NCBI GenBank assembly: GCA_951812955.1
Contig: OX638340.1
Coordinates: 3,360,001-3,424,000 of the forward strand
Length of the DNA: 64,000 bases
From: an uncultured Gemmatimonadota bacterium
GTDB taxonomy: Bacteria > JAAXHH01
Direction of reading: 5' to 3'
The first letter of the stretch is position 1; each line of letters opens with the position of its first letter. Below, one piece after another: positions 2,456 through 53,554 of this stretch. Under the pieces are notes generated by a model, which saw only the letters and a list, made by a program, of their open reading frames with translations, had not been told where the DNA came from and searched no databases. A program made the translations under genes and the position numbers.

Positions 2456-2504
2456 AAACTTAAAAAGGGTCCTGGCCGGCCCTTATAAGGATCCTTTCTC
2501 CCCT

Positions 2505-4802
2505 TCAGGCTTCCGTCCTGCCCTTCAAAGGAGCCGTCCTCCCCTTCAGGCTTCCGGCCCCACGCGTACGAGCGCGTTTCGAGCCGTTGTTGACCCTGAC
2601 CGTTTCACAGGCCTGTTCGTATAATTCCCTCTGAGACTGTAAACGACTACCCGCCTTCTTCACGTACCGGTACGTTCCATCCGACTGCAATTCCCGCGCC
2701 TTCACGTTGTCCTTCAACTGGATTTTCAAATACGCCCACAGTTCCGCCTGGAGCGCACGGTCGACGACCGGGAAGGAAACTTCAACGCGCCGGTTGAGAT
2801 TCCGGTCCATCCAGTCCGCGCTGGAAAAGTAATACTCCGGGTCTCCGTCGTTGTAGAAATAGAAGAGGCGGACGTGTTCGAGAAACCGGTCGACGATGCT
2901 GATGACGCTGATGTTCTCGCTCAGACCCGGAACACCTGGTCTCAGGCAGCATATGCCCCGAATGATCAGCTGAATCTGCACGCCGGCCTGTGACGCCTGG
3001 TACAGCTCGACGATCATGTCCGGGTCGACGAGCGAATTGATCTTGGCGATTATGAGGGCCGGCTGGCCGTTTCGGGCCCGCTCGCTTTCCCTCCGCAGCC
3101 TTTTAACCATGTCCTCCCGCATCGACGTGGGAGAAAGGATGAGGTGGTGAAAGTGCTTGGGCAGCGCGTAACCCGTCAGCAGGTTGAACAACTGCGTTAC
3201 GTCCTCGCCGAATTCCTCCTTGTCCGTGAACAGGCCGAAATCGGCGTATATCCGTGCCGTCTTGTCGTTGTAATTCCCCGTGCCCAGGTGACAGTAGCGG
3301 TGAATTGCGTCGCCTTCGCGGCGCACCACCAGGCAGGCCTTGCAATGGACCTTTATGCCTGGTATGCCGTAGATGACGTGGGCCCCCGCTTCCTCGAGCT
3401 GCCTTGCCCACTGGATGTTCGCCGCCTCGTCGAACCGGGCCTTCAATTCCAGCAGCACCGATACTTCCTTGCCGTTTTCCGCCGCCCGGGTCAGCGCCCG
3501 TGTAATCGGCGAGTTTGCGCTCACTCGGTACAGCGTCATCTTGATGGCGAGCACGCTGGGGTCTTCCGCCGCTTCCGAAACGAAACGGACTACCGCGTTG
3601 AACTGATGGAAGGGGTGGTGCAGCAGGATGTCTTCCTTCTTGATGGCGTCCCATATGGAAGGGGCTCCCTCGAAGGACATCGCCGGCTGGGGCGGGAAGG
3701 GTTCGTCCATGAGATCCGGCCGGTCGATGGCATCGTAGAACTCGATGAGATCGGAAAAGGCGGTGAAACCCTCCGTGGGGTAAAGGTCCTCCTGCTCCAG
3801 TTCCAGTTCGTCCACCAGGATGTCCAGGACGCGGGTGGATAACTCCGGATCGTACTGCAGCCGGACGGCAGCCCCGTTTCGCCGGTTTCTTATGCCCTCC
3901 TCGATGACCGTCAGCAGGTCCTCCGCGCCTTCCTCCTCGTAGTCCACGTCGGCGTCCCGCGTCACGCGGATCGACGCGCAGTTCAGCACCTCGTAGCCGT
4001 TGTAGAACAGGTCGAGGTTCATGAGGATGACGTCCTCCAGCATGAAGAACGCCTGCCGGCCGTTCTCGGACGGTAGTTCGAGGAATCGCGGCATGACGGA
4101 TGTGGGCAGGTGGATGACTGAAAGGTTTGTGTGGGGAAAGACGGACCGCTGGATCTTCCGGATTTCAGCCACCAGGCAGAGCGTGCCGTTGGCCAGGTAG
4201 GGAAAGGGATGTCCCGGGTCTACCGCCAGCGGGGTCACCACGGGCAGTATGGTCTTCCGGAAGTACTCGTCCAGGTAGGCCTTCTGCGAAGGGCTGAGCT
4301 GTTCGGGCTTGAGTATGTCGATGCCCTGCTCGGTGAGCTGCGGGAAGATCTCGTTGATGAACAAGCCGTGCTGCTTGTTGACCAGTTCGTGCATCCTGGC
4401 CGAAAGGGCGGTCATCACCTCTCTGGGACTCAGGCCGTCCGCGGTCCGCGTGGATTGGATCTGCGCATCGATCTGTCTTTTGACGCCGGCGACGCGGATC
4501 ATGAAGAATTCGTCCAGATTGGTACTGAATATGGCCAGGAACTTCACTCGTTCCAGCAGGGGCACCGACGGATCGAGCGCTTCCTCGAGCACCCGCGCGT
4601 TGAACTCCATCCAGCTGAGTTCCCGGTTGAAGAAGTGCTCCGGGCGCCAGTAGTTCGTCACCAGCGGTGCCGTGGACGGCCGGGGCTTTCGGGTGAAGCG
4701 CCGGCCGGCTCGCTTAGAGGCGATGGTTCGAACCGTTGCGGTCCTGGCGTTGTTTCTTTTTGCAGTTGGCATTACCAGGTCACCAGAGATGATTGCGGAC
4801 AT
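2505..4802 (-). CDS. ppk: Polyphosphate kinase 1 (the true start may be an internal codon; N-terminus is ~40 aa longer than E. coli PPK)
   Basis: Canonical PPK1 N-domain NRELSWMEFNARVLEEA...VKFLAIFSTNLDEFFMIRVAG and PLD-like C-domains, along 765 aa. Confidence 0.9.
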   Translation of the reverse strand: MSAIISGDLVMPTAKRNNARTATVRTIASKRAGRRFTRKPRPSTAPLVTNYWRPEHFFNRELSWMEFNARVLEEALDPSVPLLERVKFLAIFSTNLDEFFMIRVAGVKRQIDAQIQSTRTADGLSPREVMTALSARMHELVNKQHGLFINEIFPQLTEQGIDILKPEQLSPSQKAYLDEYFRKTILPVVTPLAVDPGHPFPYLANGTLCLVAEIRKIQRSVFPHTNLSVIHLPTSVMPRFLELPSENGRQAFFMLEDVILMNLDLFYNGYEVLNCASIRVTRDADVDYEEEGAEDLLTVIEEGIRNRRNGAAVRLQYDPELSTRVLDILVDELELEQEDLYPTEGFTAFSDLIEFYDAIDRPDLMDEPFPPQPAMSFEGAPSIWDAIKKEDILLHHPFHQFNAVVRFVSEAAEDPSVLAIKMTLYRVSANSPITRALTRAAENGKEVSVLLELKARFDEAANIQWARQLEEAGAHVIYGIPGIKVHCKACLVVRREGDAIHRYCHLGTGNYNDKTARIYADFGLFTDKEEFGEDVTQLFNLLTGYALPKHFHHLILSPTSMREDMVKRLRRESERARNGQPALIIAKINSLVDPDMIVELYQASQAGVQIQLIIRGICCLRPGVPGLSENISVISIVDRFLEHVRLFYFYNDGDPEYYFSSADWMDRNLNRRVEVSFPVVDRALQAELWAYLKIQLKDNVKARELQSDGTYRYVKKAGSRLQSQRELYEQACETVRVNNGSKRARTRGAGSLKGRTAPLKGRTEA

Positions 4803-5067: not shown

Positions 5068-5613
5068 ATGAACGAAGAACTGACAAAGAATCGTGGAGAA
5101 GTCATGCAAAAGAGTCGTGGCGAAGTCATGAAAATGAATGAAGTGTTGGATGTACTTAAAGGAAGCCTGGCCAAGGTAGACGGCATGAAGTTCTTGCTGG
5201 ACTACGAGGATCTCATCTGGCGCATGGCGCCGAACGCCCAATCCGTACAGGCGTTGCTGGAAGATATGGTCGACGCGGAACAGCAACTCTGGTCCGCCCT
5301 GCTGCCAGGGTGCCTGGAATCCCGGCAACGCCGCATCTTTCAAGATCGTCTCCGCGAACGGAATCGATTCTGGCAAAAGAACGACAACCGCCTCGGCATT
5401 TTCAACCAGTTTCTCAGCAACCGGCGCATTACGCTGCTTCTGCTCGAAGATTTAGCGGGAAATGACTGGAACAGGAATGCCCCCGACGGAATGGATGAAG
5501 GATCCGTCGTCGACCAGGTCGATCGCCTGATCGAGCGCCAGAACCAGTGCCTTACCATGATCCAGGGGATACTGAACGAGCGGTTCGAAGCAATGAAGAA
5601 AAGCGCCGTATGA
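5068..5613 (+). CDS. Hypothetical soluble protein (181 aa) inside an AT-rich patch; N-terminus has two copies of a 24-nt repeat (KNRGEVMQ/KSRGEVMK), so several in-frame SD+ATG starts exist
   Basis: ORF with GGAG-like SDs before the ATGs at 5068, 5104 and 5128. No recognisable domain. Local GC is clearly lower than the ~65% flanks. Confidence 0.4.
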   Translation: MNEELTKNRGEVMQKSRGEVMKMNEVLDVLKGSLAKVDGMKFLLDYEDLIWRMAPNAQSVQALLEDMVDAEQQLWSALLPGCLESRQRRIFQDRLRERNRFWQKNDNRLGIFNQFLSNRRITLLLLEDLAGNDWNRNAPDGMDEGSVVDQVDRLIERQNQCLTMIQGILNERFEAMKKSAV

Positions 5614-8759: not shown

Positions 8760-8831
8760 CGCAGAATGACGACTTGCGGGGACGCTCGACCTTTTCAATC
8801 TCAACTGCCAGCTCAATTAAGGAGGAGTAGT

Positions 8832-11800
8832 ATGTTTCGGCGGAATGCCATCGCTGCAATTTTGGTATCGTTGTTTTTACCAGTCCTCGCAGAAGCACAA
8901 TCCAACCCGGTCGTTTCAGTCACAGACTCGGACATCGTGGGTAACGTGACCTTCACGTCGAACAACACGTACCTGCTCTCGGGCCTGGTGTTCGTGGAGG
9001 ATGGCGAGACGCTTACGATCGAACCCGGCACGGTGATCAAGGCGCGTCCGGCGGACGCCGACGGTGTGGTCTCGGCATTGATTGTAGCGCGCGGCGGGAA
9101 GATCTTTGCTGACGGTACGGCGATGGATCCCATCATCTTCACGGCCGAGGCCGACAATGTGGACGATCCGGACGACATCCTGCTCACCTCGGAAGCGGCC
9201 TCGCGGGGGTTGTGGGGCGGCGTGATCATCCTGGGCAGGGCATCGATCAACGCGGCCACGGGCATGAACAACATAGAAGGCATAGACACGACTGAGCCGC
9301 GGGGCATCTACGGCGGCGGCTCGTTCCCCGACGATAACGACAACTCGGGCGTGTTTCGCTACGTGTCGATCCGCCACGGCGGCGCGCGGATCGGAGCGGA
9401 CAACGAGATCAATGGGCTGACGATGGGCGGCGTGGGGCGTGGCACGACGATAGAGCACGTGGAGGTGTTCTACAACCAGGACGACGGGTTCGAGTGGTTC
9501 GGGGGCACGGTGAATACGCGTTACCTGGTGGCGGCCTTTGCCGGCGACGACAGCTTCGACTACGACGAGGGCTTCCGCGGTGAGCACCAGTTCTGGTTCT
9601 CTATCCAGGATCCGGCCGTAGGCGACCACGCCGGCGAGCACGACGGCGGCACCAAGCCGGAGGATGGCAGGCCGTACGCCAGTCCCACGATCCTGAACGC
9701 CACGTACATTGGGCGGGGCGCTTCCTCGATGGGGGGCAAGGCGAATAACGCCCTGATCTTCCGCGACAACGCGGGGGGCATGTATTTCAACAGCATCTTC
9801 ACCGAGTTCCAGGGCCGGATGCTGTCGATCGAGGACCTCGAGGGCAATGCGGGCACGGACAGCCGCGCGCGTCTTGAGGCCGGCGACCTTGCGTTCCAAA
9901 ACAACATCCTGGGTGCCTTCGGCGCGGGCAACACGCCATCGCAACTCGCCGCCGAGTCCGAGGATCACACGGCCATGGTGCTTTCAGATCCCGGGAACAT
10001 GATCCGAATCGTAGATCCACAATTGCAGGGCATCAACTGGAACCGCAACCGGGGGCTGGACCCACGACCCGGTACCAACAGTCCTGCCTGGGATGCGAGC
10101 CAGCTCAAGGAAGAACCCCGGAACACCGGGTTCTTTACGGACGTCGATTACGCAGGGGCATTCGGTACGGAAAACTGGGCGGCGGACTGGTCGGCCCTCG
10201 CGGACCTGGGCTATTTCAGCACCGCACCTCCACCCGAGCCGCCGGAGCCCGGGGTTGTTACTGTCACAGACTCGGACATCGTGGGTAACGTGACCTTCAC
10301 GTCGAACAACACGTACCTGCTCTCGGGCCTGGTGTTCGTGGAGGATGGCGAGACGCTTACGATCGAACCCGGCACGGTGATCAAGGCGCGTCCGGCGGAC
10401 GCCGACGGCGTGGTCTCGGCATTGATTGTAGCGCGCGGCGGGAAGATCTTTGCCGACGGTACGGCGATGGATCCCATCATCTTCACGGCCGAGGCCGACA
10501 ATGTGGACGATCCGGACGACATCCTGCTCACCTCGGAAGCGGCCTCGCGGGGGTTGTGGGGCGGCGTGATCATCCTGGGCAGGGCATCGATCAACGCGGC
10601 CACGGGCATGAACAACATAGAAGGCATAGACACGACTGAGCCGCGGGGCATCTACGGCGGCGGCTCGTTCCCCGACGATAACGACAACTCGGGCGTGTTT
10701 CGCTACGTGTCGATCCGCCACGGCGGCGCGCGGATCGGAGCGGACAACGAGATCAATGGGCTGACGATGGGCGGCGTGGGGCGTGGCACGACGATAGAGC
10801 ACGTGGAGGTGTTCTACAACCAGGACGACGGGTTCGAGTGGTTCGGGGGCACGGTGAATACGCGTTACCTGGTGGCGGCCTTTGCCGGCGACGACAGCTT
10901 CGACTACGACGAGGGCTTCCGCGGTGAGCACCAGTTCTGGTTCTCTATCCAGGATCCGGCCGTAGGCGACCACGCCGGCGAGCACGACGGCGGCACCAAG
11001 CCGGAGGATGGCAGGCCGTACGCCAGTCCCACGATCCTGAACGCCACGTACATTGGGCGGGGCGCTTCCTCGATGGGGGGCAAGGCGAATAACGCCCTGA
11101 TCTTCCGCGACAACGCGGGGGGCATGTATTTCAACAGCATCTTCACCGAGTTCCAGGGCCGGATGCTGTCGATCGAGGACCTCGAGGGCAATGCGGGCAC
11201 GGACAGCCGCGCGCGTCTTGAGGCCGGCGACCTTGCGTTCCAAAACAACATCCTGGGTGCCTTCGGCGCGGGCAACACGCCATCGCAACTCGCCGCCGAG
11301 TCCGAGGATCACACGGCCATGGTGCTTTCAGATCCCGGGAACATGATCCGAATCGTAGATCCACAATTGCAGGGCATCAACTGGAACCGCAACCGGGGGC
11401 TGGACCCACGACCCGGTACCAACAGTCCTGCCTGGGATGCGAGCCAGCTCAAGGAAGAACCCCGGAACACCGGGTTCTTTACGGACGTCGATTACGCAGG
11501 GGCATTCGGTACGGAAAACTGGGCGGCGGACTGGTCGGCCCTCGCGGACCTGGGCTATTTCAGCACCGCACCTCCACCCGAGCCGCCGGAGCCCGGGGAA
11601 CCGGAAGAAGAAGCGCCGGACGCGTTCAGCCTGTCGCAGAACAGTCCGAACCCCTTCGGCATGACCACGAATATAGAGTACGCAGTATCTTCGACGAGCC
11701 ACATACTGATCGAGGTGTACAACATTCGGGGCCAGCGGGTAGCCATGGTCGTTAACGATATCAGGCTTCCGGGGCAGTACTCGGAGATATGGGACGCTCA

Positions 11801-11897
11801 GCACCTTTCAAGCGGCGTATATTTCTACCGCTTCGAGGCTACGGCGGATGGGCGGACCGCCCACGTTTTTAACAGGAAGATGACGCTTCTGAAGTGA
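8832..11897 (+). CDS. T9SS-secreted protein (1021 aa): signal peptide, two near-identical 448-aa modules of unknown function, and a Por-secretion C-terminal sorting domain
   Basis: Strong SD AAGGAGG before the ATG at 8832. Signal peptide MFRRNAIAAILVSLFLPVLAEA. C-terminus LSQNSPNPF...HILIEVYNIRGQRV...SGVYFYRFEA matches the TIGR04183-type T9SS CTD. The internal modules carry no recognisable catalytic motif. Confidence 0.75.
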   Translation: MFRRNAIAAILVSLFLPVLAEAQSNPVVSVTDSDIVGNVTFTSNNTYLLSGLVFVEDGETLTIEPGTVIKARPADADGVVSALIVARGGKIFADGTAMDPIIFTAEADNVDDPDDILLTSEAASRGLWGGVIILGRASINAATGMNNIEGIDTTEPRGIYGGGSFPDDNDNSGVFRYVSIRHGGARIGADNEINGLTMGGVGRGTTIEHVEVFYNQDDGFEWFGGTVNTRYLVAAFAGDDSFDYDEGFRGEHQFWFSIQDPAVGDHAGEHDGGTKPEDGRPYASPTILNATYIGRGASSMGGKANNALIFRDNAGGMYFNSIFTEFQGRMLSIEDLEGNAGTDSRARLEAGDLAFQNNILGAFGAGNTPSQLAAESEDHTAMVLSDPGNMIRIVDPQLQGINWNRNRGLDPRPGTNSPAWDASQLKEEPRNTGFFTDVDYAGAFGTENWAADWSALADLGYFSTAPPPEPPEPGVVTVTDSDIVGNVTFTSNNTYLLSGLVFVEDGETLTIEPGTVIKARPADADGVVSALIVARGGKIFADGTAMDPIIFTAEADNVDDPDDILLTSEAASRGLWGGVIILGRASINAATGMNNIEGIDTTEPRGIYGGGSFPDDNDNSGVFRYVSIRHGGARIGADNEINGLTMGGVGRGTTIEHVEVFYNQDDGFEWFGGTVNTRYLVAAFAGDDSFDYDEGFRGEHQFWFSIQDPAVGDHAGEHDGGTKPEDGRPYASPTILNATYIGRGASSMGGKANNALIFRDNAGGMYFNSIFTEFQGRMLSIEDLEGNAGTDSRARLEAGDLAFQNNILGAFGAGNTPSQLAAESEDHTAMVLSDPGNMIRIVDPQLQGINWNRNRGLDPRPGTNSPAWDASQLKEEPRNTGFFTDVDYAGAFGTENWAADWSALADLGYFSTAPPPEPPEPGEPEEEAPDAFSLSQNSPNPFGMTTNIEYAVSSTSHILIEVYNIRGQRVAMVVNDIRLPGQYSEIWDAQHLSSGVYFYRFEATADGRTAHVFNRKMTLLK
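8919..11606 (+). repeat. Direct tandem duplication, 2 x 1344 bp (copy A 8919-10262, copy B 10263-11606), >99.8% identical over 1336 bp
   Basis: Identical antisense ORFs appear at a 1344-nt offset in the ORF track (8916-9968 vs 9984-11312; 9560-9934 vs 10904-11278). Aligning the plus-strand text by eye finds two mismatches, both synonymous: GGT/GGC near 9075/10419 and GCT/GCC near 9109/10453; the alignment was not checked base by base. Confidence 0.9.
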
Positions 11898-20790: not shown

Positions 20791-22230
20791 CTACATCTTG
20801 ATACACACGTTCTTGGGTTCCGTGAAGAAACGCAGGGCCTCGATTCCTCCCTCCCGGCCGACCCCCGACTGTTTCATGCCACCGAATGGCGTACGGAGGT
20901 CCCGCAACATCCAGCAGTTGATCCAGATGATGCCGGCGTGCAGACGTTCGGCGACGCGATGGGCCCGGCCCAGGTTTTCGGTCCACAGCATGGCGGCCAG
21001 GCCGTATGGCGTACCGTTGGCCTGGGCGATCACGTCCTCCTCGGTATCGAAAGGCAGGAGCGAAACGACGGGACCGAAGATTTCCTCCTGGTTGGTCCGG
21101 CAGTCCGGTGGCAGGCCTTCGATCACCGTAGGCGCTACGAACCAACCGTCCCGACAGCGCCCGTTTACCCGAACCCGTTGGCCGCCGCAGAGGACCCGCC
21201 CGCCTTCGTCACCGGCCAGTTCGATGTAGGCGAGGATCTTGTCCATGTGGTCCGCGGAAACGACGGCGCCGAGCCGGTTGCCCGCAGACCTTGGATCGCC
21301 GACGGTCAGTTGCCGGGTCCGTTCGACGAAATCGTCCCGAAAGGTGTCGTAGAGCGGCCTTTCGATGAAGATGCGCGGACCGCACAGGCAGATCTCGCCC
21401 TGGTTGGAGAACGAGGAAAGCAGGGCGGTCTGTAATGCATCCTCATAGGGACAGTCCGCGAAGACGATATTCGGGTTTTTCCCGCCCAGTTCGAGGGAAA
21501 TCCGCTTGAATAGGGGCGCGGCCGCGGCCGCGATCTTCCTGCCCGTGTCCGTTCCTCCGGTGAAGGATACTGCGTGAACCCGGGGATGTTCCACCACGGC
21601 CGCTCCCGCCTTGTGGCCGTAGCCGTGCACGATGTTCAGCACACCCGCCGGCAATCCCGCTTCCCTGCAGATCCCGGAGAGCAGGAACGCGGTGGTGGGG
21701 GTAAGTTCGGACGGTTTGCCGATCACGCAGTTTCCGGCGGCCAGCGCCGGCGCGATCTTCCACGTCAGCAGGTAGAGGGGCAGGTTCCAGGGCGATATGC
21801 ACCCGGCGATACCGATGGGGCCGCGCAGGGTATAGTTGAGGGCGCCTTTACCCATGGCGTGGGATTCGCTGGAAAAGTGCTCGATGGCCGTGGCGTAGAA
21901 CCGGAAGTTGCTCGCGGCGCGGGGGATATCCACCGATTCCGCCAGGGCAACGGGTTTGCCCGTATCGTCCGATTCCGCGAGGGCCAATTCATCTCGCCTC
22001 TCCTCGATCAGGTCGGCAATGCGGTGGAGATACCCTGACCGATCCTGGACGGACAGGGATGACCAGTCCGGAAAGGCGTTTTCCGCCGCGTTCACCGCTT
22101 CTTCCACATCCCGGCCGTCCGAGTCGGGAATCCCGCCCAGTACGGTGGCCGTGGCGGGATCGACATTGTCCAGGTAGCCGCCGCCGACCGGTTCGCGCAA
22201 TTCGCCGCCGATGTAATTGAGTATGTGCAT
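20791..22230 (-). CDS. Aldehyde dehydrogenase, probable 2-aminomuconate-6-semialdehyde dehydrogenase (start at the ATG at 22230; the longer ORF to 22329 is rejected)
   Basis: ALDH family: N-terminus MHILNYIGGE, catalytic ELGGKNP and GEICLCGPR(I) Cys motif. Context within the kynurenine operon. Confidence 0.8.
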   Translation of the reverse strand: MHILNYIGGELREPVGGGYLDNVDPATATVLGGIPDSDGRDVEEAVNAAENAFPDWSSLSVQDRSGYLHRIADLIEERRDELALAESDDTGKPVALAESVDIPRAASNFRFYATAIEHFSSESHAMGKGALNYTLRGPIGIAGCISPWNLPLYLLTWKIAPALAAGNCVIGKPSELTPTTAFLLSGICREAGLPAGVLNIVHGYGHKAGAAVVEHPRVHAVSFTGGTDTGRKIAAAAAPLFKRISLELGGKNPNIVFADCPYEDALQTALLSSFSNQGEICLCGPRIFIERPLYDTFRDDFVERTRQLTVGDPRSAGNRLGAVVSADHMDKILAYIELAGDEGGRVLCGGQRVRVNGRCRDGWFVAPTVIEGLPPDCRTNQEEIFGPVVSLLPFDTEEDVIAQANGTPYGLAAMLWTENLGRAHRVAERLHAGIIWINCWMLRDLRTPFGGMKQSGVGREGGIEALRFFTEPKNVCIKM

Positions 22231-22339
22231 TTGCAGAGAGAACCGTCGGGAATGCTGTGTCAGAGACGTCAGGTACGAGCCGCCTCGCAGGGTAACCGGT
22301 AATGTAGACCTGGCCGGACGGCCTGTCAAGCCGGGGGCC

Positions 22340-22466
22340 GCCGCTCACCAAAGCCTCTCCGCGGCCGTTGCCATGCTGTTTCGTGGCCGCTGCTCACCAG
22401 GGCCTCTTCGCGGCCATTGCCCTGCTTCTTCGTGGTCGCCGCTCACCAGGGCCATGCTTCAAAACC
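22340..22466. repeat. 49-bp tandem repeat, ~2.3 copies, in the intergenic region between the KMO and AMSDH genes
   Basis: Units start at 22340, 22389 and 22438: GCCGCTCACCAAAGCCTCTCCGCGGCC... / GCTGCTCACCAGGGCCTCTTCGCGGCC... / GCCGCTCACCAGGGCC (truncated). Confidence 0.7.
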
Positions 22467-22497: not shown

Positions 22498-23862
22498 TCA
22501 GGTTCCGAGCCGCTCGCTGACCAGCCGTTCCGCCAGGTCCCAGTCCACCTGCTCTTCCGCGGATATGGAATCGCAGATTTCCCGTAAAATGCCGTCCTGG
22601 ATTTCACCGCTGCGCAGCGCCTCGCTATAGGGAAACCGGTGGAATGACACCATGGAATAACGGGGGATATACAGGTCGGGAAACTTCCGTTCCAGCAGGA
22701 AACCCACCTTCTGCCTGAGTTGAAACCCCGGGTCGCTCACCTGGTCGCGCATCTCGACGTAATTGGCCAGCGCCATGTCGGCGATGGCATCCGTGTCTTC
22801 CTTCCTGCGGCGCCCGAAGGACTCGAATACCGTTTCCCAGTCCGGCCAGTATGCCTCGATACATTCGTCGAGGACGGTGCAGTCCTCGAAAGCGCAGTTC
22901 ATCCCCTGGCCGAAGAAAGGCACGATGGCGTGCGCGGCGTCGCCCAGAAGGAGGACCCGGTCACGATAGTGCCAGGGAAAACACTTGAGCGTGACCAGCG
23001 ATCCCGTGGGATTGTCGAGGTACAGCGTGGTCAGATCGGGCATCAGCGCCGCGGCATCTGGGAACTGCGACTTGAAAAAGTCCAGTATCTGCCGCGGGTC
23101 CAGGAGGCTGGCGAAACTGTAATCGCCTTCGTGGGGGAAGAAGAGGGTGCAGGTAAAGCTGCCGTCCAGATTCGGCAGCGCGATCAGCATGTACAGGCCC
23201 CGCGGCCAGATGTGGAGGGCATTGGGCTCCATCCTGTACGCACCGTTCGTCCCCGCTGGAATGGTCAGTTCCTTGTATCCGTGGGTCAGGTACTGCTGGG
23301 AGAGGTCGAACCGGCCCACGTTCATCATGGCGGTTCGTATGGCCGAAGCGGAGCCGTCCACCCCGATGATCCGCTTCGGGCGGAGCGAGTGGACGTGATT
23401 GGTCGCGTCGTCGCGGACATACAGCACACCGGTACGGAACTCCACCCCCGTGCACCGGGCGTTGAAATGCAGCCGTACGCCGTCCTGCCGTTCCGCGGCG
23501 CTGAGCAGGACCCGGTTCAGTTCGCCGCGGGATACGGAGTAGATGACCTCTTCGTCCCGCTGGCCGTAAGGCTGGAGGACCCGTTCGCCTTTCACGGGAT
23601 GAATCAGCCGTCCCGCCATGGGTATCGCCATGCCCAGGACTTCGTCTTTGAGACCGACCTGCTGTAGCGCATGGAGTCCACGGGCGGACATGGCCAGGTT
23701 GATCGACCGGCCGGCTTTACCGGCGCCAGTCGAAACCCGACGGATATCGGGCCGCTTTTCGTATACTTCGACCCTGAAACCCCGGCGGGCGAGAAAAACC
23801 GCCAGCAGGGATCCTGCGAGACCCGCGCCTACCAGGGTTATGGTCTCCCGTTTGACACCCAT
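22498..23862 (-). CDS. kmo: Kynurenine 3-monooxygenase (FAD-dependent; start at the ATG at 23862)
   Basis: FAD fingerprint ITLVGAGLAGSLLAVFLARRGFRVEVYEKRPD, DG motif IIGVDGSASAIR, GD motif LLGDAAHAIVPFFGQGMN, and a KMO C-terminal tail. Confidence 0.85.
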   Translation of the reverse strand: MGVKRETITLVGAGLAGSLLAVFLARRGFRVEVYEKRPDIRRVSTGAGKAGRSINLAMSARGLHALQQVGLKDEVLGMAIPMAGRLIHPVKGERVLQPYGQRDEEVIYSVSRGELNRVLLSAAERQDGVRLHFNARCTGVEFRTGVLYVRDDATNHVHSLRPKRIIGVDGSASAIRTAMMNVGRFDLSQQYLTHGYKELTIPAGTNGAYRMEPNALHIWPRGLYMLIALPNLDGSFTCTLFFPHEGDYSFASLLDPRQILDFFKSQFPDAAALMPDLTTLYLDNPTGSLVTLKCFPWHYRDRVLLLGDAAHAIVPFFGQGMNCAFEDCTVLDECIEAYWPDWETVFESFGRRRKEDTDAIADMALANYVEMRDQVSDPGFQLRQKVGFLLERKFPDLYIPRYSMVSFHRFPYSEALRSGEIQDGILREICDSISAEEQVDWDLAERLVSERLGT

Positions 23863-23902
23863 GGGTACCCACATTCGGTTCGAAACCGGAATGAAAACCA
23901 GG

Positions 23903-25195
23903 TCAGCCGACCGAGCCCAACTCCCCCGCCATGACCTCCACGAAACGATGGACATCCGTGTAGCGGTTGTAGAGCGGAACGGGGGCGACGCGGATCACGT
24001 CGGGTTCCCGCCAGTCGCACCGGATGCCGTGCTCCGACAGAATCCCGTGTACGCGGCGTCCTGCCGGCCCCGTCCTGATCGAAAGCTGGCATCCGCGCTG
24101 TACCGGGTCCGGCGGCGAGATGATGGACAGCTCTTCCGGCAGGCGGGTCCGGAGCAGGTGTTCCATGTACCCGGTCAACCGCATGCTCTTGTTTCGCAGC
24201 CGGTCCATGCCCGCCTCGTCGAAGAGTTCCAGCGAGGCGCGCAGGGCCGCAAGGGGCAGGATCGGCGGATTGCTCAGCTGCCAGCCTTCCGCCCCCGGGA
24301 TCGCCTCGAAAGCCGGTGGCATCCGGAACCGGGTGGACTTGTCATGTCCCCACCAACCGGCGAACCGGGGGAGATCGTCCCTTCGGCCATGCCGTTCGTG
24401 GACGAAGCACCCGCCGACGCAGCCGGGTCCCCCGTTCAGGTACTTATAGGAACACCAGGCGGCGAAGTCGACGTCCCAGTCGTGGAGCCGCAGGGCCAGG
24501 TTGCCCATGGCGTGGGCGAGGTCGAATCCCACGACGCACCCTTGCCGGTGACCCGCCCGGGTGATCCGTTCCATGTCGAAGGCCTGTCCGGTCAGGTAGT
24601 TCACCCCACCCAGGAAGACCAGGGCGATGGTCTCGCCTTCCCGTTCGATCAGGTCCTCGATGTCGGACGTGCGGATCGTGTCCTCCCCTTCCCGGGGCCG
24701 CAGCTCGATCACGCTTTCGGCAGGGTCGTATCCATGCCAGGCGGCCTGCGAAGCCACGGCGTACCGGTCCGAGGGGAATGCGGAGCCTTCGATGAGGATC
24801 CGGTTTCTCCCCGGCGTGGGGCGGTAGAAAGAGACCATCATCAGGTGCAGATTCACCGTGAGGGTGTTCATGGCCACGACCTCTCCGGGCCCGGCGCCTG
24901 CGAGACGGGCCAGCGGGTCCGTGAGCGCTTCGTGGTAGGACATCCAGGGGTTATCTCCCTCGAAATGTCCTTCGACGCCCAGCCTTCGCCAGTCTTCGAG
25001 TTCCCGGTCCACGTAGTCCCGGGCGGCTACCGGCTGGAGTCCCAGCGAATGGCCCACCAGGTAGACCGCATCCCCCCCGTTTTCAGCGCGGGGAAAATGA
25101 AAGCGGGACCGGAAGGCCGAAAGGTCATCGGCGGCGTCCAGTTCTGCGGCGTCGGTTTCTGTGGCGTTCATTGGGAAATCGATTCGATCATTCAT
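23903..25195 (-). CDS. kynU: Kynureninase (PLP-dependent)
   Basis: Collinear with KynU: ...AVYLVGHSLGLQP...MNTLTVNLHLMM...CSYKYLNGGPG (PLP-Lys region). Confidence 0.88.
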   Translation of the reverse strand: MNDRIDFPMNATETDAAELDAADDLSAFRSRFHFPRAENGGDAVYLVGHSLGLQPVAARDYVDRELEDWRRLGVEGHFEGDNPWMSYHEALTDPLARLAGAGPGEVVAMNTLTVNLHLMMVSFYRPTPGRNRILIEGSAFPSDRYAVASQAAWHGYDPAESVIELRPREGEDTIRTSDIEDLIEREGETIALVFLGGVNYLTGQAFDMERITRAGHRQGCVVGFDLAHAMGNLALRLHDWDVDFAAWCSYKYLNGGPGCVGGCFVHERHGRRDDLPRFAGWWGHDKSTRFRMPPAFEAIPGAEGWQLSNPPILPLAALRASLELFDEAGMDRLRNKSMRLTGYMEHLLRTRLPEELSIISPPDPVQRGCQLSIRTGPAGRRVHGILSEHGIRCDWREPDVIRVAPVPLYNRYTDVHRFVEVMAGELGSVG

Positions 25196-41189: not shown

Positions 41190-41327
41190 TTGGACTCCAT
41201 GACTGCCTGACTGCCGGACAATGGGTTCCCACGCTTCGCCCGCCCGATCCTCAAAGGTGCGAACGCGGTACACTAAAGACGCAAGCGCGGTACACTACAG
41301 CACGAGCGCGGTACATTCAGTAACCGA

Positions 41328-49710: not shown

Positions 49711-50772
49711 TCAATCCGACATCAGTCGTTCCGCCTCCTCGATTACACGCCGTGATTCGAGATCCTCCATGCACGCATGGGTACCGTAGCGGCATGCCCG
49801 GTCCCCATGCAGGCTGCAGGGACTGCAGGGAAGGTCGAGCGTTACGGCGGCGTCCGCCGGCCCGAGGGGGGCGAACCCCAGCCGGGGATGTGTGGCGCCG
49901 AACACGCCGACGACCGGCGTACCCACGGCTGTCGCCACGTGCATGGGACCGGAATCGTTGCTGACCAGGAGTCCGCAGCGCCGCACGGCCGCGGGCAGCA
50001 GCGAGAGATCAGTCGTTCCGGTCCAGTCCACGGCCGGGCTCTTCATGGCGCGGGCCACCTCGCCTGCGACGGTACGGTCCTCCTCGCTGCCAAGAAGCAA
50101 CACCCTCATGTCGCGGGATTCCGCCACGTGGTCGGCGACCTCGGCAAACCGCTCCGGAAGCCAGTGTTTCGGACCGTGCGAGGCGCCGGGCGCCACCCCG
50201 AGTACCGGGACCCCGGGGCCGATACCGGCATCCGCCAGCCGTTCCTCCACCCACGCCACCGCCCGGGCGTCGACATTCAGTTCCGGCAGCCGCTTCTCTT
50301 CTGCGCCTTGTGCGCCATCAAGATGGGACGCACCGACTGGATCGAGCTGATCGAGTGTCGCAAGGTAGCGGTCGACCGTATGGGGCACAACCGCGGCACC
50401 GCCGGGCTTTCGAACGATGGCCATCCGGGAGAGCCGGCGCTTATCGTACCGGACGACCCGCCCCGCGTTGCCAGCCAGCGACACCAGCCGGCTGCGCAGG
50501 TTCCCATGCAGGTCGGTCACCAGGTCGTATTTTCTTCGCCGTATGCGGGAGATAAGGCGCGTGAGCCCCTTCGCGGGTTCCAGGCGCTCCACCTCGTTTA
50601 CACCGGGCAACGCGCGAGCCAGGCCGACGTATTCCGAACGCGTAAGAAAGTCGATTTCCGCGTCGGGCCAGATTCTGCGAACCGCTCGCGTAACCGGCGA
50701 GGTCAGCACGATATCGCCCATTGAACTGAACCGGATGACCAGGATGCGGGATGGGGATTCGGACGGGGTCAT
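49711..50772 (-). CDS. Glycosyltransferase family 9 (ADP-heptose:LPS heptosyltransferase-like)
   Basis: ILVIRFSSMGDIVLTSPV...GSEED...LLVSNDSGPMHVATAVGTPVVGVFG. Confidence 0.8.
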   Translation of the reverse strand: MTPSESPSRILVIRFSSMGDIVLTSPVTRAVRRIWPDAEIDFLTRSEYVGLARALPGVNEVERLEPAKGLTRLISRIRRRKYDLVTDLHGNLRSRLVSLAGNAGRVVRYDKRRLSRMAIVRKPGGAAVVPHTVDRYLATLDQLDPVGASHLDGAQGAEEKRLPELNVDARAVAWVEERLADAGIGPGVPVLGVAPGASHGPKHWLPERFAEVADHVAESRDMRVLLLGSEEDRTVAGEVARAMKSPAVDWTGTTDLSLLPAAVRRCGLLVSNDSGPMHVATAVGTPVVGVFGATHPRLGFAPLGPADAAVTLDLPCSPCSLHGDRACRYGTHACMEDLESRRVIEEAERLMSD

Positions 50773-50827
50773 TGAATCACGCCCCCTAGGTACGCGTTCT
50801 TACGGAAGGAATGGGCCGGTTTGCGCC

Positions 50828-51850
50828 TTATCCCAGTTGTTCGCCCACCGCCTCAACGGCCATATCCACGGTAATGCCAGTAAGGTCGCAGAGGGGACCG
50901 CGTTCGCAGGTCGGACACTGCCCGTCGGGCGGCAGCAGGTTTTTGTCCCGTCCGCCCAGGGGCCGCCACCGCTGCGGAGACCTCGCAGGCAACGGGCAGA
51001 AGATGGATACCGTGGGGACGCCCAGCGCGCCCGCCAGGTGCATGGGACCCGTGCTGCTGCACACCAGGAGATCCATTTCACCGACCACCGCGATGAGTTC
51101 GTCCAGCGAAAGCCGCCCCGCAAGGGAAAGGGCGGGTCCGTCCAGCGCGGACATGATCGTCCGGGCGAGATGGTCTTCCTCCGCGCTGCCGGTGACGACG
51201 ATTTTCGCGCCATGGCGGTCCTGCAACCGTTTTGCCAGTGCGCCGTACCGCTCGGCCGTCCAGTTCGGGGCGTTCCCGCCGTTACCGGGATGAATGCCGA
51301 TGACCGGAATCCCTTCCGCCGAGCCCAGTACCGCGCGGGCTTCAAGCCGCTTCCGCTCCTGCACCTCGATCAGGGTCCCCCTACCCGGTTCCCGGGCGTC
51401 GAGGGCACGGGCAAGGTCCAGGCAGTAGTCCGATTCGTGCCGGAGGGGTTCGTAACCGTCGCGGCTGATCGACCGCGTAAAGGTCAGCGCCTGGTATATC
51501 GTCCGGCCCACGCCGACGCGGCGCGGAATGCCTGCCAGGAAGAGCATCCAGGCATGGCGCATGGTCGGCATGAGCATCAGGGCCGTGTCGAATCGATGGG
51601 ACCTGAGAAGCCGCACCTGTTCCAGGAAACCCGCCGGGCCGCGATGACCGTCATCCGGGTCGTCCGCGATCACGGCGTCGAGAACGGGGTTTCTTTCGGC
51701 CACCGCTCGGGTGTAGGGATGTACCATCATGGCGAGGTAGGCTTCCGGCCAGCGATGCCGGAGGGCGTTGATCACCGGCAGAGACAGCACCACGTCTCCG
51801 ACCCGGTCGGGTCTGATCACGAGGATCCGGGGTGAGGTTGCCTGTTCCAT
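50828..51850 (-). CDS. Glycosyltransferase family 9 (second heptosyltransferase-like paralog; start ATG at 51850)
   Basis: ILVIRPDRVGDVVLSLPV...LLVCSSTGPMHLAGALGVPTVSIF. Confidence 0.8.
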   Translation of the reverse strand: MEQATSPRILVIRPDRVGDVVLSLPVINALRHRWPEAYLAMMVHPYTRAVAERNPVLDAVIADDPDDGHRGPAGFLEQVRLLRSHRFDTALMLMPTMRHAWMLFLAGIPRRVGVGRTIYQALTFTRSISRDGYEPLRHESDYCLDLARALDAREPGRGTLIEVQERKRLEARAVLGSAEGIPVIGIHPGNGGNAPNWTAERYGALAKRLQDRHGAKIVVTGSAEEDHLARTIMSALDGPALSLAGRLSLDELIAVVGEMDLLVCSSTGPMHLAGALGVPTVSIFCPLPARSPQRWRPLGGRDKNLLPPDGQCPTCERGPLCDLTGITVDMAVEAVGEQLG

Positions 51851-51887
51851 CGGCGATCCACCGTCGCTCCCGCGGCCTGTCGTCTTT

Positions 51888-52961
51888 CTACGCCTTCCGG
51901 GATTCGGCAAGGCGCAGTTGTCCGCATGCCGCGTCGATGTCCCTGCCGCGTTCCCGCCGCATGGTCAAGTGCAGTCCGCCCGCCCGCAACGCATCCGCAA
52001 AGACCGTCCGGCGGTATTCGTCGGGGGTTTCGTAGGGCAGGCCGCGCACCGGGTTATAGGGAATCAGATTCAGCTTGCATTTGTCCTTTTTCAGCAGCCG
52101 AACAAGGTGTTCCGCGTCCTGGAACCGGTCGTTCACGCCCTTGAGCAGGACATATTCATAGGTGATGATCCGGTCGGTCACCCCGGTGTAGTGGCGACAG
52201 GCCTTCATGAGCTGCTTGAGGGGATAACGCCGGTTGATGGGGACGATCTCGGAACGGGTTCGGTCGTCGGCGGCATGGAGGGACACGGACAACTCGAACT
52301 GGATCTTCTCGTCGGCCAGCTGGTAGATCTTGGGAACGAGGCCGCTGGTGGACAGCGTGATTCTGCGGGCGCCGATGCCGAGTCCCCAGTCGGCGTTGAT
52401 GATCCGTACGGCCCTGAGCACCTGGCTGTAGTTGGCGAGCGGCTCCCCCATGCCCATTACGACGATGTTGTTTATTGGACGGTCATCACCGGCCAGCTTC
52501 CTGACCTGGACGACCTGGTCGACGATTTCGGCCGACGTCATGTTGCGCGCCAGGCCCTCCAGCCCGCTCGCGCAGAAACGGCAGCCGATGGCGCACCCCA
52601 CCTGCGTGGAGATGCAGAGCGTGTTGCGCCGCGAACCGCCGATCAACACCGTCTCCACCTTCTGGCCGTCCCCGAGTTCGAACAGGTACTTCATGGTCGG
52701 ACCGTGGCGCGACTTCGACTGTTGGACGATGGTCAACGGGTTCAGGCAGGCGCGGTCCGAAAGTTCGGCCCGGAATGACCGGGACAGGTTGGTCATTTCC
52801 TCGAATGAGCCCACGGCCTTCTTGTATACCCATGAGGCGATCTGGCCGGCCCGATAGGCCGGTTCGTTCATCTCCGCGACGATCCGCGAGATCTCCGGCA
52901 GCGTCAGGCTCCTCAGATCCGGTTTGCCGCGCGCCGCCGTTCGTGATGTCGGTGCCTGCAT
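51888..52961 (-). CDS. rlmN: 23S rRNA (adenine2503-C2)-methyltransferase RlmN (radical SAM). The reading frame stays open through three 66-bp repeats up to 53126, so the N-terminus may be extended
   Basis: ...PAYRAGQIASWVYKK...EMTNL..., CxxxCxxC TQVGCAIGCRFCASG, ...GMGEPL..., ...DIDAACGQL. The ATG at 52961 gives an N-terminus of canonical length. Confidence 0.8.
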   Translation of the reverse strand: MQAPTSRTAARGKPDLRSLTLPEISRIVAEMNEPAYRAGQIASWVYKKAVGSFEEMTNLSRSFRAELSDRACLNPLTIVQQSKSRHGPTMKYLFELGDGQKVETVLIGGSRRNTLCISTQVGCAIGCRFCASGLEGLARNMTSAEIVDQVVQVRKLAGDDRPINNIVVMGMGEPLANYSQVLRAVRIINADWGLGIGARRITLSTSGLVPKIYQLADEKIQFELSVSLHAADDRTRSEIVPINRRYPLKQLMKACRHYTGVTDRIITYEYVLLKGVNDRFQDAEHLVRLLKKDKCKLNLIPYNPVRGLPYETPDEYRRTVFADALRAGGLHLTMRRERGRDIDAACGQLRLAESRKA

Positions 52962-53111
52962 GGTCAACTCCGATTTCCTCAGATCCGGTCTGCCGCGCGC
53001 CGCCGTTCGTGATGCCGGTGCCTGCATGATCAACTCCGATTTCCTCAGGTCCGGTTTGCCGCGCGTCGCCGTCCGTGATGCCGGTGACCGCATGGTCAAC
53101 TCCGATCTCCA
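52914..53111. repeat. Imperfect tandem repeat, 3 x 66 bp, at the 5' end of rlmN. Each unit (minus-strand sense) carries GGAG-N6-ATG and a TTGACC hexamer
   Basis: Units start at 52914, 52980 and 53046. The minus strand reads AGGAAATCGGAGTTGACCATGCAGGCACCG.... Encoded peptide repeat DLRKSELxMQAPxSRTAARGxP. Confidence 0.8.
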
Positions 53112-53377
53112 CAAAACCGGTTGCAAGATACGGCGGATCGAACCCGTTGTCTATGGAAAAGCGGTGAAGGCGCGCCGGTCGCGATCGCACCTTCAGCCCG
53201 TATACTATAGGCATGACGGCCCGGCAACGCCAAGGTTGACATTTTGCTTGTTTTCGACCTCCCGCCCGCGTATATTTTCGTCGGAAGGCAAACTGGCATG
53301 AACACAGGCTTAAGGGGTCTGCGACGTAGCGCGTCGACGCGAGGAACGCAAGGACTCCGTAGCGGAGGATTGAAAAA

Positions 53378-53554
53378 ATGGCTAAGGACAGAAGCTTTGC
53401 GGCCAAGATGGCCAAGGGGACCGACAAGGATCAGGAAGAGCAGATCCAGACCGTGCTGCTGGTCAAACCCGTCAAGTCGGAAGAAGGCCACTACAAGTTC
53501 AAGCGCACGATAACCAAGTTGACCCCCGAGAACAAGAAGGCCCTCGGCGTCTGA
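53378..53554 (+). CDS. Small basic protein (58 aa), DUF4295-like; not in the ORF track (under 60 aa)
   Basis: GGAGGA SD 8 nt before the ATG at 53378. MAKDRSFAAKMAKGTDKDQEEQIQTVLLVKPVKSEEGHYKFKRTITKL... has the compositional pattern of the FCB-group DUF4295 mini-proteins (MAKK...KMVKSPKTG.Y.F.E). Confidence 0.4.
   Translation: MAKDRSFAAKMAKGTDKDQEEQIQTVLLVKPVKSEEGHYKFKRTITKLTPENKKALGV

Follow-up and report, generated by a model that had tools for sequence, protein, structure and literature searches.

The window analyzed here is a 64,000-nt stretch of contig OX638340.1 (assembly GCA_951812955.1) from an uncultured Gemmatimonadota bacterium, and our subject is a tandem array at the 5′ end of its rlmN gene, which encodes the dual-specificity rRNA/tRNA methyltransferase RlmN on the minus strand. 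Read in rlmN sense, the array consists of three 66-bp units arranged head-to-tail, which we call, moving away from the gene, proximal unit C, middle unit B, and distal unit A (Table 1). Tandem Repeats Finder called the array at 52910-53122 with a period of 66, 3.2 copies, 89% matches, and no indels, and its score of 342 was the highest among the arrays of the window. A search with the unit sequence placed the proximal and middle copies at one and three mismatches from the query, respectively, and blastn found the distal copy to be 91% identical to it; on shuffled sequence, 0 of 100 shuffles contained a match. A repeat finder also returned these three copies at 66-nt spacing. The 14 nt that flank the array on its promoter side resemble the 3′ end of the unit (CCGGATCTGAGGAG), which explains the additional 0.2 copy in the Tandem Repeats Finder call.

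Each unit carries, on the minus strand, GGAG, six nucleotides (TTGACC or TTGATC), and then ATG. The three ATGs, at 53093, 53027, and 52961, share the rlmN frame because 66 nt equals 22 codons, and this frame is open from 53126 down to the stop at 51888. The original prediction, made from the sequence alone, had described tandem 66-bp units in frame with rlmN, each with its own Shine-Dalgarno (SD) sequence and ATG, and this description is borne out: there are three copies, and each has an SD-like GGAG spaced suitably from its ATG. The accompanying proposal that RlmN could bear zero to three N-terminal repeats holds for the existence of three start codons but not for the number, since their use would add 0, 1, or 2 extra repeats.

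Several lines of evidence identify the host gene and its start. The translated protein scores 420.3 bits against TIGR00048, the RlmN equivalog model (cutoff 290), and far under the cutoffs of the Cfr models; Pfam assigns it RlmN_N and Radical_SAM domains (Radical_SAM E = 2.7e-17), and it contains the CxxxCxxC radical-SAM cluster motif (GCAIGCRFCASG). Solved RlmN structures match it with E-values down to 4e-99, and the alignment to structure 6fz6 begins 11 residues past the proximal Met. Across family profiles and solved structures, homology begins 7-12 residues past that Met, so the proximal ATG gives an RlmN of canonical length, 357 aa, as had been predicted; the nearest homologs are 357-359 aa long and share the N terminus MQAPTSRTAARG. 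Gene callers used the proximal ATG at all loci examined. The extension that the upstream units would encode lies outside the RlmN_N domain and is of low complexity. Even the native N-terminal tail is weakly constrained, in agreement with the very different tails of RlmN homologs at 82-91% identity.

Table 1. Positions of the rlmN array, of other features of the window, and of short repeats at two related loci (ORF, open reading frame)
Feature	Position	Strand	Details
rlmN canonical coding sequence	51888..52961	-	357 aa + stop; start = proximal ATG 52961
66-bp array	52909-53106	-	three units, head-to-tail
Proximal unit C	52909..52974	-	SD GGAG 52971-52968; ATG 52961-52959; first 17 RlmN codons
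Middle unit B	52975..53040	-	GGAG 53037-53034; TTGATC; ATG 53027-53025; in frame, +22 aa
Distal unit A	53041..53106	-	GGAG 53103-53100; ATG 53093-53091; in frame, +44 aa
14-nt flank	53107..53120	-	CCGGTTTTGTGGAG; 11/14 positions match unit 3′ end
Promoter-like site	53125..53153	-	TAGACA, 17 nt, TATCTT; from consensus scan; directly upstream of array
Antisense ORF over repeat	52924-53301	+	125 aa; overlaps rlmN
Other-frame ORF	52486-53427	-	313 aa; overlaps rlmN
58-aa ORF	53378-53554	+	divergent from rlmN
Two adjacent glycosyltransferase genes	49711-51910	-	family 9, heptosyltransferase-like; after rlmN
1043-aa ORF	8766-11897	+
Internal direct repeat of 1043-aa ORF	8909-9208 / 10253-10552		1344-nt (448-codon) period
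12-bp micro-repeats within it	9621-9652, 10965-10996		identical
49-bp tandem repeat	22336-22453		2.4 copies, 85% matches; between ORFs 22498-23955 (-) and 20791-22329 (-)
41-bp array	2479-2556		1.9 copies
24-bp array	5081-5139		2.5 copies
22-bp array	41260-41315		2.6 copies
15-bp repeats, locus L025	2577-2631		3.7 copies
15-bp repeats, locus L026	2548-2617		4.7 copies
16-bp repeats, locus L025	2383-2428		GGCCGTCCGTGATTCC x 2.9
16-bp repeats, locus L026	2397-2428		CGGGCGGCCCGGGATT x 2.0

Related loci were located first by way of the neighboring 58-aa gene, which is divergent from rlmN, and next with RlmN homologs and DNA patterns. Because the exact 357-aa RlmN of the window has no identical sequence on record in the collection, the window haplotype itself is not among the collection's genomes. 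The close clade, defined by RlmN at least 95% identical, comprises 14 loci with 10 distinct array haplotypes. Three sister species (L011, L012, and L013; RlmN 86-87% identical) have the same gene order and a single unit each, laid out as TAGACA, 17 nt, TAT(C/T)TT, a leader of about 25 nt (hexamer end to ATG), GGAG, 6 nt, and ATG, followed by about 17 tail codons and the conserved LRGLTLPEI. Reading copy number as the distance from TAGACA to LPEI, we obtained 147 nt for one unit (L011 and L012; L013 is single-copy by sequence reading), 213 or 214 nt for two units (L001, L002, L004-L008, L014, and L017), 279 nt for three (the window, L009, and L028), and 343 nt for two units with a nested 21/22-bp sub-repeat (L003 and L010). 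The states are thus separated by steps of exactly 66 nt (147 + 66 = 213; + 66 = 279), and therefore what has been repeated is the translation-initiation region of rlmN itself together with the first 20 codons, tandemly duplicated from a single-copy ancestor. The prediction that unit number would vary among strains is confirmed by this series, with one unit in the sister species and two or three in the close clade.

The original prediction had also reasoned that orthologs lacking the repeat but otherwise alike would betray an insertion artefact. Such orthologs exist in L011-L013, but they indicate a lineage-specific duplication; an artefact is contradicted by the independent assemblies in which the array recurs. 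The array is present at 14 loci from such assemblies, including the complete 3.91-Mb chromosome OY762445.1 (L017), two large contigs, L004 and L014, that were probably assembled from long reads, judging by their names, and MKWU01001448.1 (L028), whose prefix MKWU01 is cited by papers on the hybrid Illumina and PacBio metagenome of the sponge Aplysina aerophoba. Short tandem repeats can be misassembled from short reads, and 66 bp falls within the size range of two classes of dispersed element, mycobacterial interspersed repetitive units (MIRUs) and repetitive extragenic palindromic (REP) sequences, so an assembly error or a mobile element that landed at rlmN might be entertained. The units, however, differ from one another by 3-8 substitutions and are therefore resolvable in assembly, and their homology to the single-copy rlmN start means that they are not foreign. 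Nor did REP-like copies elsewhere in the genome, which the original prediction had suggested looking for, come to light. The unit search at three mismatches and a relaxed blastn found no further copy in the window, and a degenerate core pattern, run against one genome from each of 185,579 species, matched the rlmN locus alone in the related chromosome OY762445.1, although copies that have diverged very far could have escaped these searches. The pattern's nine other matches, each single and in unrelated GC-rich taxa (haloarchaea, Myxococcales, and others), we took as chance. With no palindromic structure found in the unit either, we rejected a dispersed repeat, the rlmN locus being the sole related match in the window and the complete chromosome, and we regard artefact or element as a highly improbable account of the array.

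What the upstream starts could produce differs sharply between haplotypes. In the window both upstream ATGs are in frame and intact, as is the upstream ATG of L001/L008; in L009/L028 the ATG of the first unit has become ACG and the middle unit is in frame and intact. L006 and L007 likewise have ACG in place of the first-unit ATG, and L014 has lost both elements of its distal start (GGAG to CAGC, ATG to ATA). A common 1-nt insertion (GGCAAATCCGG) gives L002/L005 a 67-nt period and an out-of-frame upstream open reading frame (uORF) of 19 codons; the same insertion leaves uORFs of 16 codons in L004 and 44 in L017. In L003/L010, about seven copies of a 21/22-bp sub-repeat (CCGGACGGCGGCRCGMGGCAAW) are nested in the distal 66-bp unit, flanked by two CGGAC microhomologies; this expansion adds 130 nt, shifts the frame, and yields a uORF of 62 codons. 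Altogether, an upstream start is in frame and intact in 3 of 10 haplotypes, and the first unit is incapable of giving an extended RlmN in 7 of 10, through frameshift, ATG-to-ACG change, or loss of SD and ATG. None of the 10 lacks the proximal SD and ATG or an intact RlmN frame; proximal unit C would be the functional translation-initiation region of rlmN. Two other ORFs overlap rlmN at the repeat, one antisense and one in another frame, and we treated both as spurious; the 67-nt and nested-repeat haplotypes would break the two of them (125 aa and 313 aa).

We compared mean pairwise diversity between regions of the array, rlmN codon positions, and intergenic DNA. The distal unit was the most diverse (0.143), followed by the intergenic DNA upstream (0.105), the proximal unit and rlmN third codon positions (both 0.079), the promoter and leader (0.071), and rlmN codon positions 1 and 2 (0.010-0.013). 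Between genomes the proximal unit shows 5.2 differences per 66 nt, below the distal unit. Since diversity in the distal unit exceeds that at rlmN third positions, the upstream copy evolves without detectable constraint.

These data bear directly on the idea that the in-frame starts maintain a functional set of RlmN isoforms (0, +22, and +44 aa), with slippage-varied repeat number acting as a contingency mechanism. The intact in-frame starts of the window, L001/L008, and L009/L028 fit that idea, as do the variable copy number and the tolerance of related species for in-frame repeat expansions in the RlmN tail. A maintained system is nevertheless hard to reconcile with a first unit that is broken in most haplotypes and evolves at or above the synonymous rate, with no purifying selection on the upstream units; the added residues, moreover, fall outside the conserved domain. 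Contingency fares no better, for a 66-nt unit leaves the frame unaltered and no haplotype lacks the proximal start, so that a change in copy number cannot switch rlmN on or off. We therefore find both proposals of the original prediction, maintained isoforms and contingency, unsupported, and judge a selected isoform set to be quite improbable. Judging from the sequence, the window strain probably does also make RlmN with 22 and 44 additional residues, an Arg/Ala/Thr/Pro-rich tail, from 53027 and 53093. Such forms are probably tolerated by-products and not a selected isoform system, tolerance being likely because in-frame expansions of the tail occur in L025 and L026.

Directly upstream of the array, where distal unit A adjoins the native promoter and leader, a consensus scan identified the promoter-like site listed in Table 1. 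This TAGACA-17-TATCTT motif is conserved at 20 of 20 related loci, and the motif and its spacing are also kept in single-copy species and in species with a different upstream gene. From its position upstream of the array, we infer that all units are transcribed, as leader or as 5′ coding sequence. The original prediction had noted that the TTGACC of the unit resembles a -35 hexamer; as a -35 it did not hold up, for the single-copy relatives have TCGAGC, CAGAGC, or CAGAAG at the same place and the scan found no promoter-like site within the 66-nt units, and we rejected it. A structured RNA element was rejected as well. The 251-nt leader folds no more stably than shuffled sequences (z = +0.73), the three units and two single-copy homologous units gave z = -0.2 to +0.75 against shuffles, and an Rfam scan of the whole window returned no match at gathering thresholds. 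In the related species L025 and L026, 16-bp tandem repeats lie directly upstream of the conserved, -35-like TAGAC(A/T) of rlmN; these are possible operator or UP-like sites, or merely more slippage.

We consider it likely that the array is a lineage-specific variable-number tandem repeat (VNTR), or minisatellite, in the stretch of rlmN that includes the transcribed leader and the N-terminal tail, and not a regulatory device. The data show the layout of the array, its single-copy ancestor, the polymorphism in copy number, and the absence of constraint and of dispersal; the transcription start, the choice among the ATGs, and the mutational route are proposals. In the history we propose, the segment duplicated would have comprised the SD, the ATG, 17 codons of poorly constrained tail, and the first three codons of the RlmN_N domain. 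Duplication may have proceeded by slippage, or by a microhomology-mediated route, between two short repeats ending in GGAG that flanked the ancestral unit. Such an origin agrees with the junction of the two-unit relatives (CTGAGGAG|ATCGGAG) and with the 14-nt flank, which is likely microhomology at the duplication breakpoint. A distal-specific variant, ATGCGGTCACC, occurs in the distal units of the window, L004, L006, L007, and L009; because distal-specific variants are common to several genomes, the first duplication happened once and the distal copies are orthologous.

Later changes in copy number would have come about through unequal exchange together with partial gene conversion. Variants specific to one genome and found in both of its units, for example at column 46 in L001 and L002 and at column 34 in the window and L014, indicate partial homogenization by gene conversion. 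Middle unit B differs from unit C at three positions and has derived bases in common with it (ACGAACGG, GGATCTG, and the junction GGAAATC); it is the youngest copy in the window array. The middle unit of L009 is a mosaic of the two units of L006, which is otherwise identical to L009. From these two cases it follows that the expansion from two to three units took place at least twice, independently. Throughout, an upstream promoter would transcribe the whole array, and every strain would make RlmN from the proximal start. The units farther upstream would then be decaying pseudo-starts without a conserved coding or RNA-structural role, and their redundant starts would have been lost by several independent routes, namely mutation of the start codon, frameshift, and the gain of stops shortly ahead of the true start.

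Certain observations weigh against this account. Few haplotypes were sampled, and short-read metagenome assemblies supplied some of them. At least two units are retained throughout the 95-100% clade, none of whose 10 haplotypes has gone back to one; if contraction is frequent, this retention could mean selection for the array. In addition, of the four haplotypes with a frameshift, three close the uORF with a stop ahead of the rlmN ATG: a TGA 7 nt before it in L002/L005 and L003/L010, where one G-to-T change both creates the stop and weakens the proximal GGAG, now TGAG, and a TAG in L004. Such stops hint at selection on translation of the leader. A selected leader or uORF device would accommodate these observations. 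The extra SD-ATG modules would tune rlmN translation, either as ribosome loading or standby sites or through a short uORF that terminates before the rlmN ATG and couples or throttles initiation, with copy number as an evolvable knob; a ribosome on the inferred mRNA would meet the distal SD-ATG before any other start, which also suits such a device. Yet no single arrangement is conserved, the uORF having 16, 19, 44, or 62 codons or being fused or absent, the distal unit evolves faster than synonymous sites, there is no signal of an alternative structure, and the sister species do with one unit. We hold this device to be unlikely, and a VNTR that decays without a regulatory role remains our preferred explanation.

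The RlmN tail has also been expanded in other members of the family. L025 and L026 have in-frame 15-bp tandem repeats inside the N-terminal tail of rlmN, encoding GRKPD or GVKPE motifs at the place taken by the 3′ end of the 66-bp unit, and L027 has none. The 5′ end of rlmN is thus, on these comparisons, a recurrent tandem-repeat hotspot in this family, with a tail that tolerates changes in length. A bolder reading would make of it a selected evolvability hotspot in this sponge-associated clade, counting as three independent expansions the 15-bp repeats of L025 and L026, the nested 21/22-bp repeats of L003/L010, and the 66-bp SD-ATG modules. Were that so, RlmN dosage or tail length would be set by how many initiation modules are present, or by a uORF that closes 7 nt ahead of the start, and the array would be a VNTR, formed from the start region of the gene it precedes, with which translation of an RNA-modification enzyme is tuned. 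We think this unlikely. Nothing relevant to tandem repeats or start codons of rlmN came up in a search of the literature.

As for the surroundings of rlmN, the divergent 58-aa ORF is rich in Lys and Glu (MAKDRSFAAKMAKGTDKDQEEQ...) and has no Pfam or NCBIfam match. The public collection has this identical protein in 31 blocks (21 contigs read), and a 58-aa gene is also found at this position in L011-L014, the species at 86-95%; L025-L027 lack it and instead have a TonB-dependent receptor gene upstream. On the other side, the two glycosyltransferase genes follow rlmN on the same strand in all related loci.

Other repeats are found elsewhere in the window. The internal direct repeat of the 1043-aa ORF is 98% identical over at least 300 nt, contains identical 12-bp micro-repeats, and looks like a recent in-frame internal duplication. 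The 49-bp tandem repeat fills the gap between two same-strand ORFs, a MIRU-like position inside a possible operon. Three further minisatellite-type arrays have periods of 41, 24, and 22 bp. Together with the two repeats above, they bring to five the arrays of the 64-kb window whose period is 20 bp or more.

How the array is read has practical consequences, since start-codon calling for rlmN and the length of the protein in these genomes depend on it. The array is a ready strain marker for an uncultured sponge symbiont, and it shows, in a clean natural case, how a whole translation-initiation region is multiplied by tandem duplication and how the surplus copies then decay along several independent routes, which illustrates the fate of redundant starts. 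If the array were selected, it would be an unusual way to tune the level of an RNA-modification enzyme, which the present evidence does not favor.

Among known systems, several kinds of repeat or start-site arrangement share some of the features of the rlmN array. Contingency loci of the Haemophilus and Neisseria type have units of 1-9 nt, and gain or loss of units alters promoter spacing or the frame, which turns the gene on or off. The rlmN array is similar in placing a slippage-prone repeat of strain-variable copy number at the 5′ end of a gene. Unlike those loci, it has a 66-nt, in-frame unit and a canonical start that is never lost; the proximal SD-ATG and an intact RlmN accompany every haplotype, and the promoter-like site lies upstream of the array. 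REP sequences, which pair a stable GC-rich stem-loop with many genomic copies, are not matched, for the units have no stem-loop stability beyond that of shuffles (z = -0.2 to +0.75) and occur at a single locus. Leader-peptide attenuation of the erm/cfr type, in which a conserved leader ORF is combined with alternative RNA structures that hide the downstream SD, is not indicated by the uORF, which varies from absent through the four lengths given above to fused in frame, nor by the RNA, given the unremarkable fold of the 251-nt leader and the lack of an Rfam match.

MIRUs (Supply et al. 1997, summarized in PMC3184786) are tandem units of 40-100 bp that vary in number and are co-transcribed with flanking genes; their small ORFs have ends that abut or overlap the start of the neighboring gene, and they look like inserted elements, at about 40-50 loci per genome. 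The rlmN array is MIRU-like in unit size, in its probable co-transcription, and in the end of the uORF 7 nt before the rlmN ATG in L002/L005 and L003/L010. It is unlike MIRUs in that its unit is not dispersed, lying at a single locus, and is derived from rlmN itself, the homologous sequence in single-copy relatives being the native rlmN start and not an insertion. Bacterial alternative in-frame starts that give N-terminal proteoforms are surveyed in PMC11005335 and bioRxiv 10.1101/520783, and the rlmN array resembles such systems in that several SD-ATG sites in one frame could give long and short forms of an enzyme. Known alternative starts are usually conserved pairs, whereas the extra starts of rlmN are recent duplicates that most relatives have lost.

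The closest resemblance is to VNTR or minisatellite loci, for example those used in multiple-locus VNTR analysis (MLVA) typing. Like them, the rlmN array has head-to-tail units of tens of base pairs, here a unit in the 10-100-bp range repeated beyond chance, whose number varies between strains at the same locus; it also matches them in its position at a gene boundary, in a unit length that is a multiple of three, and in the unequal exchange and gene conversion that would have acted between its units. The difference is that the repeat is not anonymous: it comprises the SD, start codon, and first 20 codons of rlmN itself, and each copy thereby brings a potential start. The sole unusual point of the rlmN VNTR is that the repeated unit is a complete translation-initiation module.

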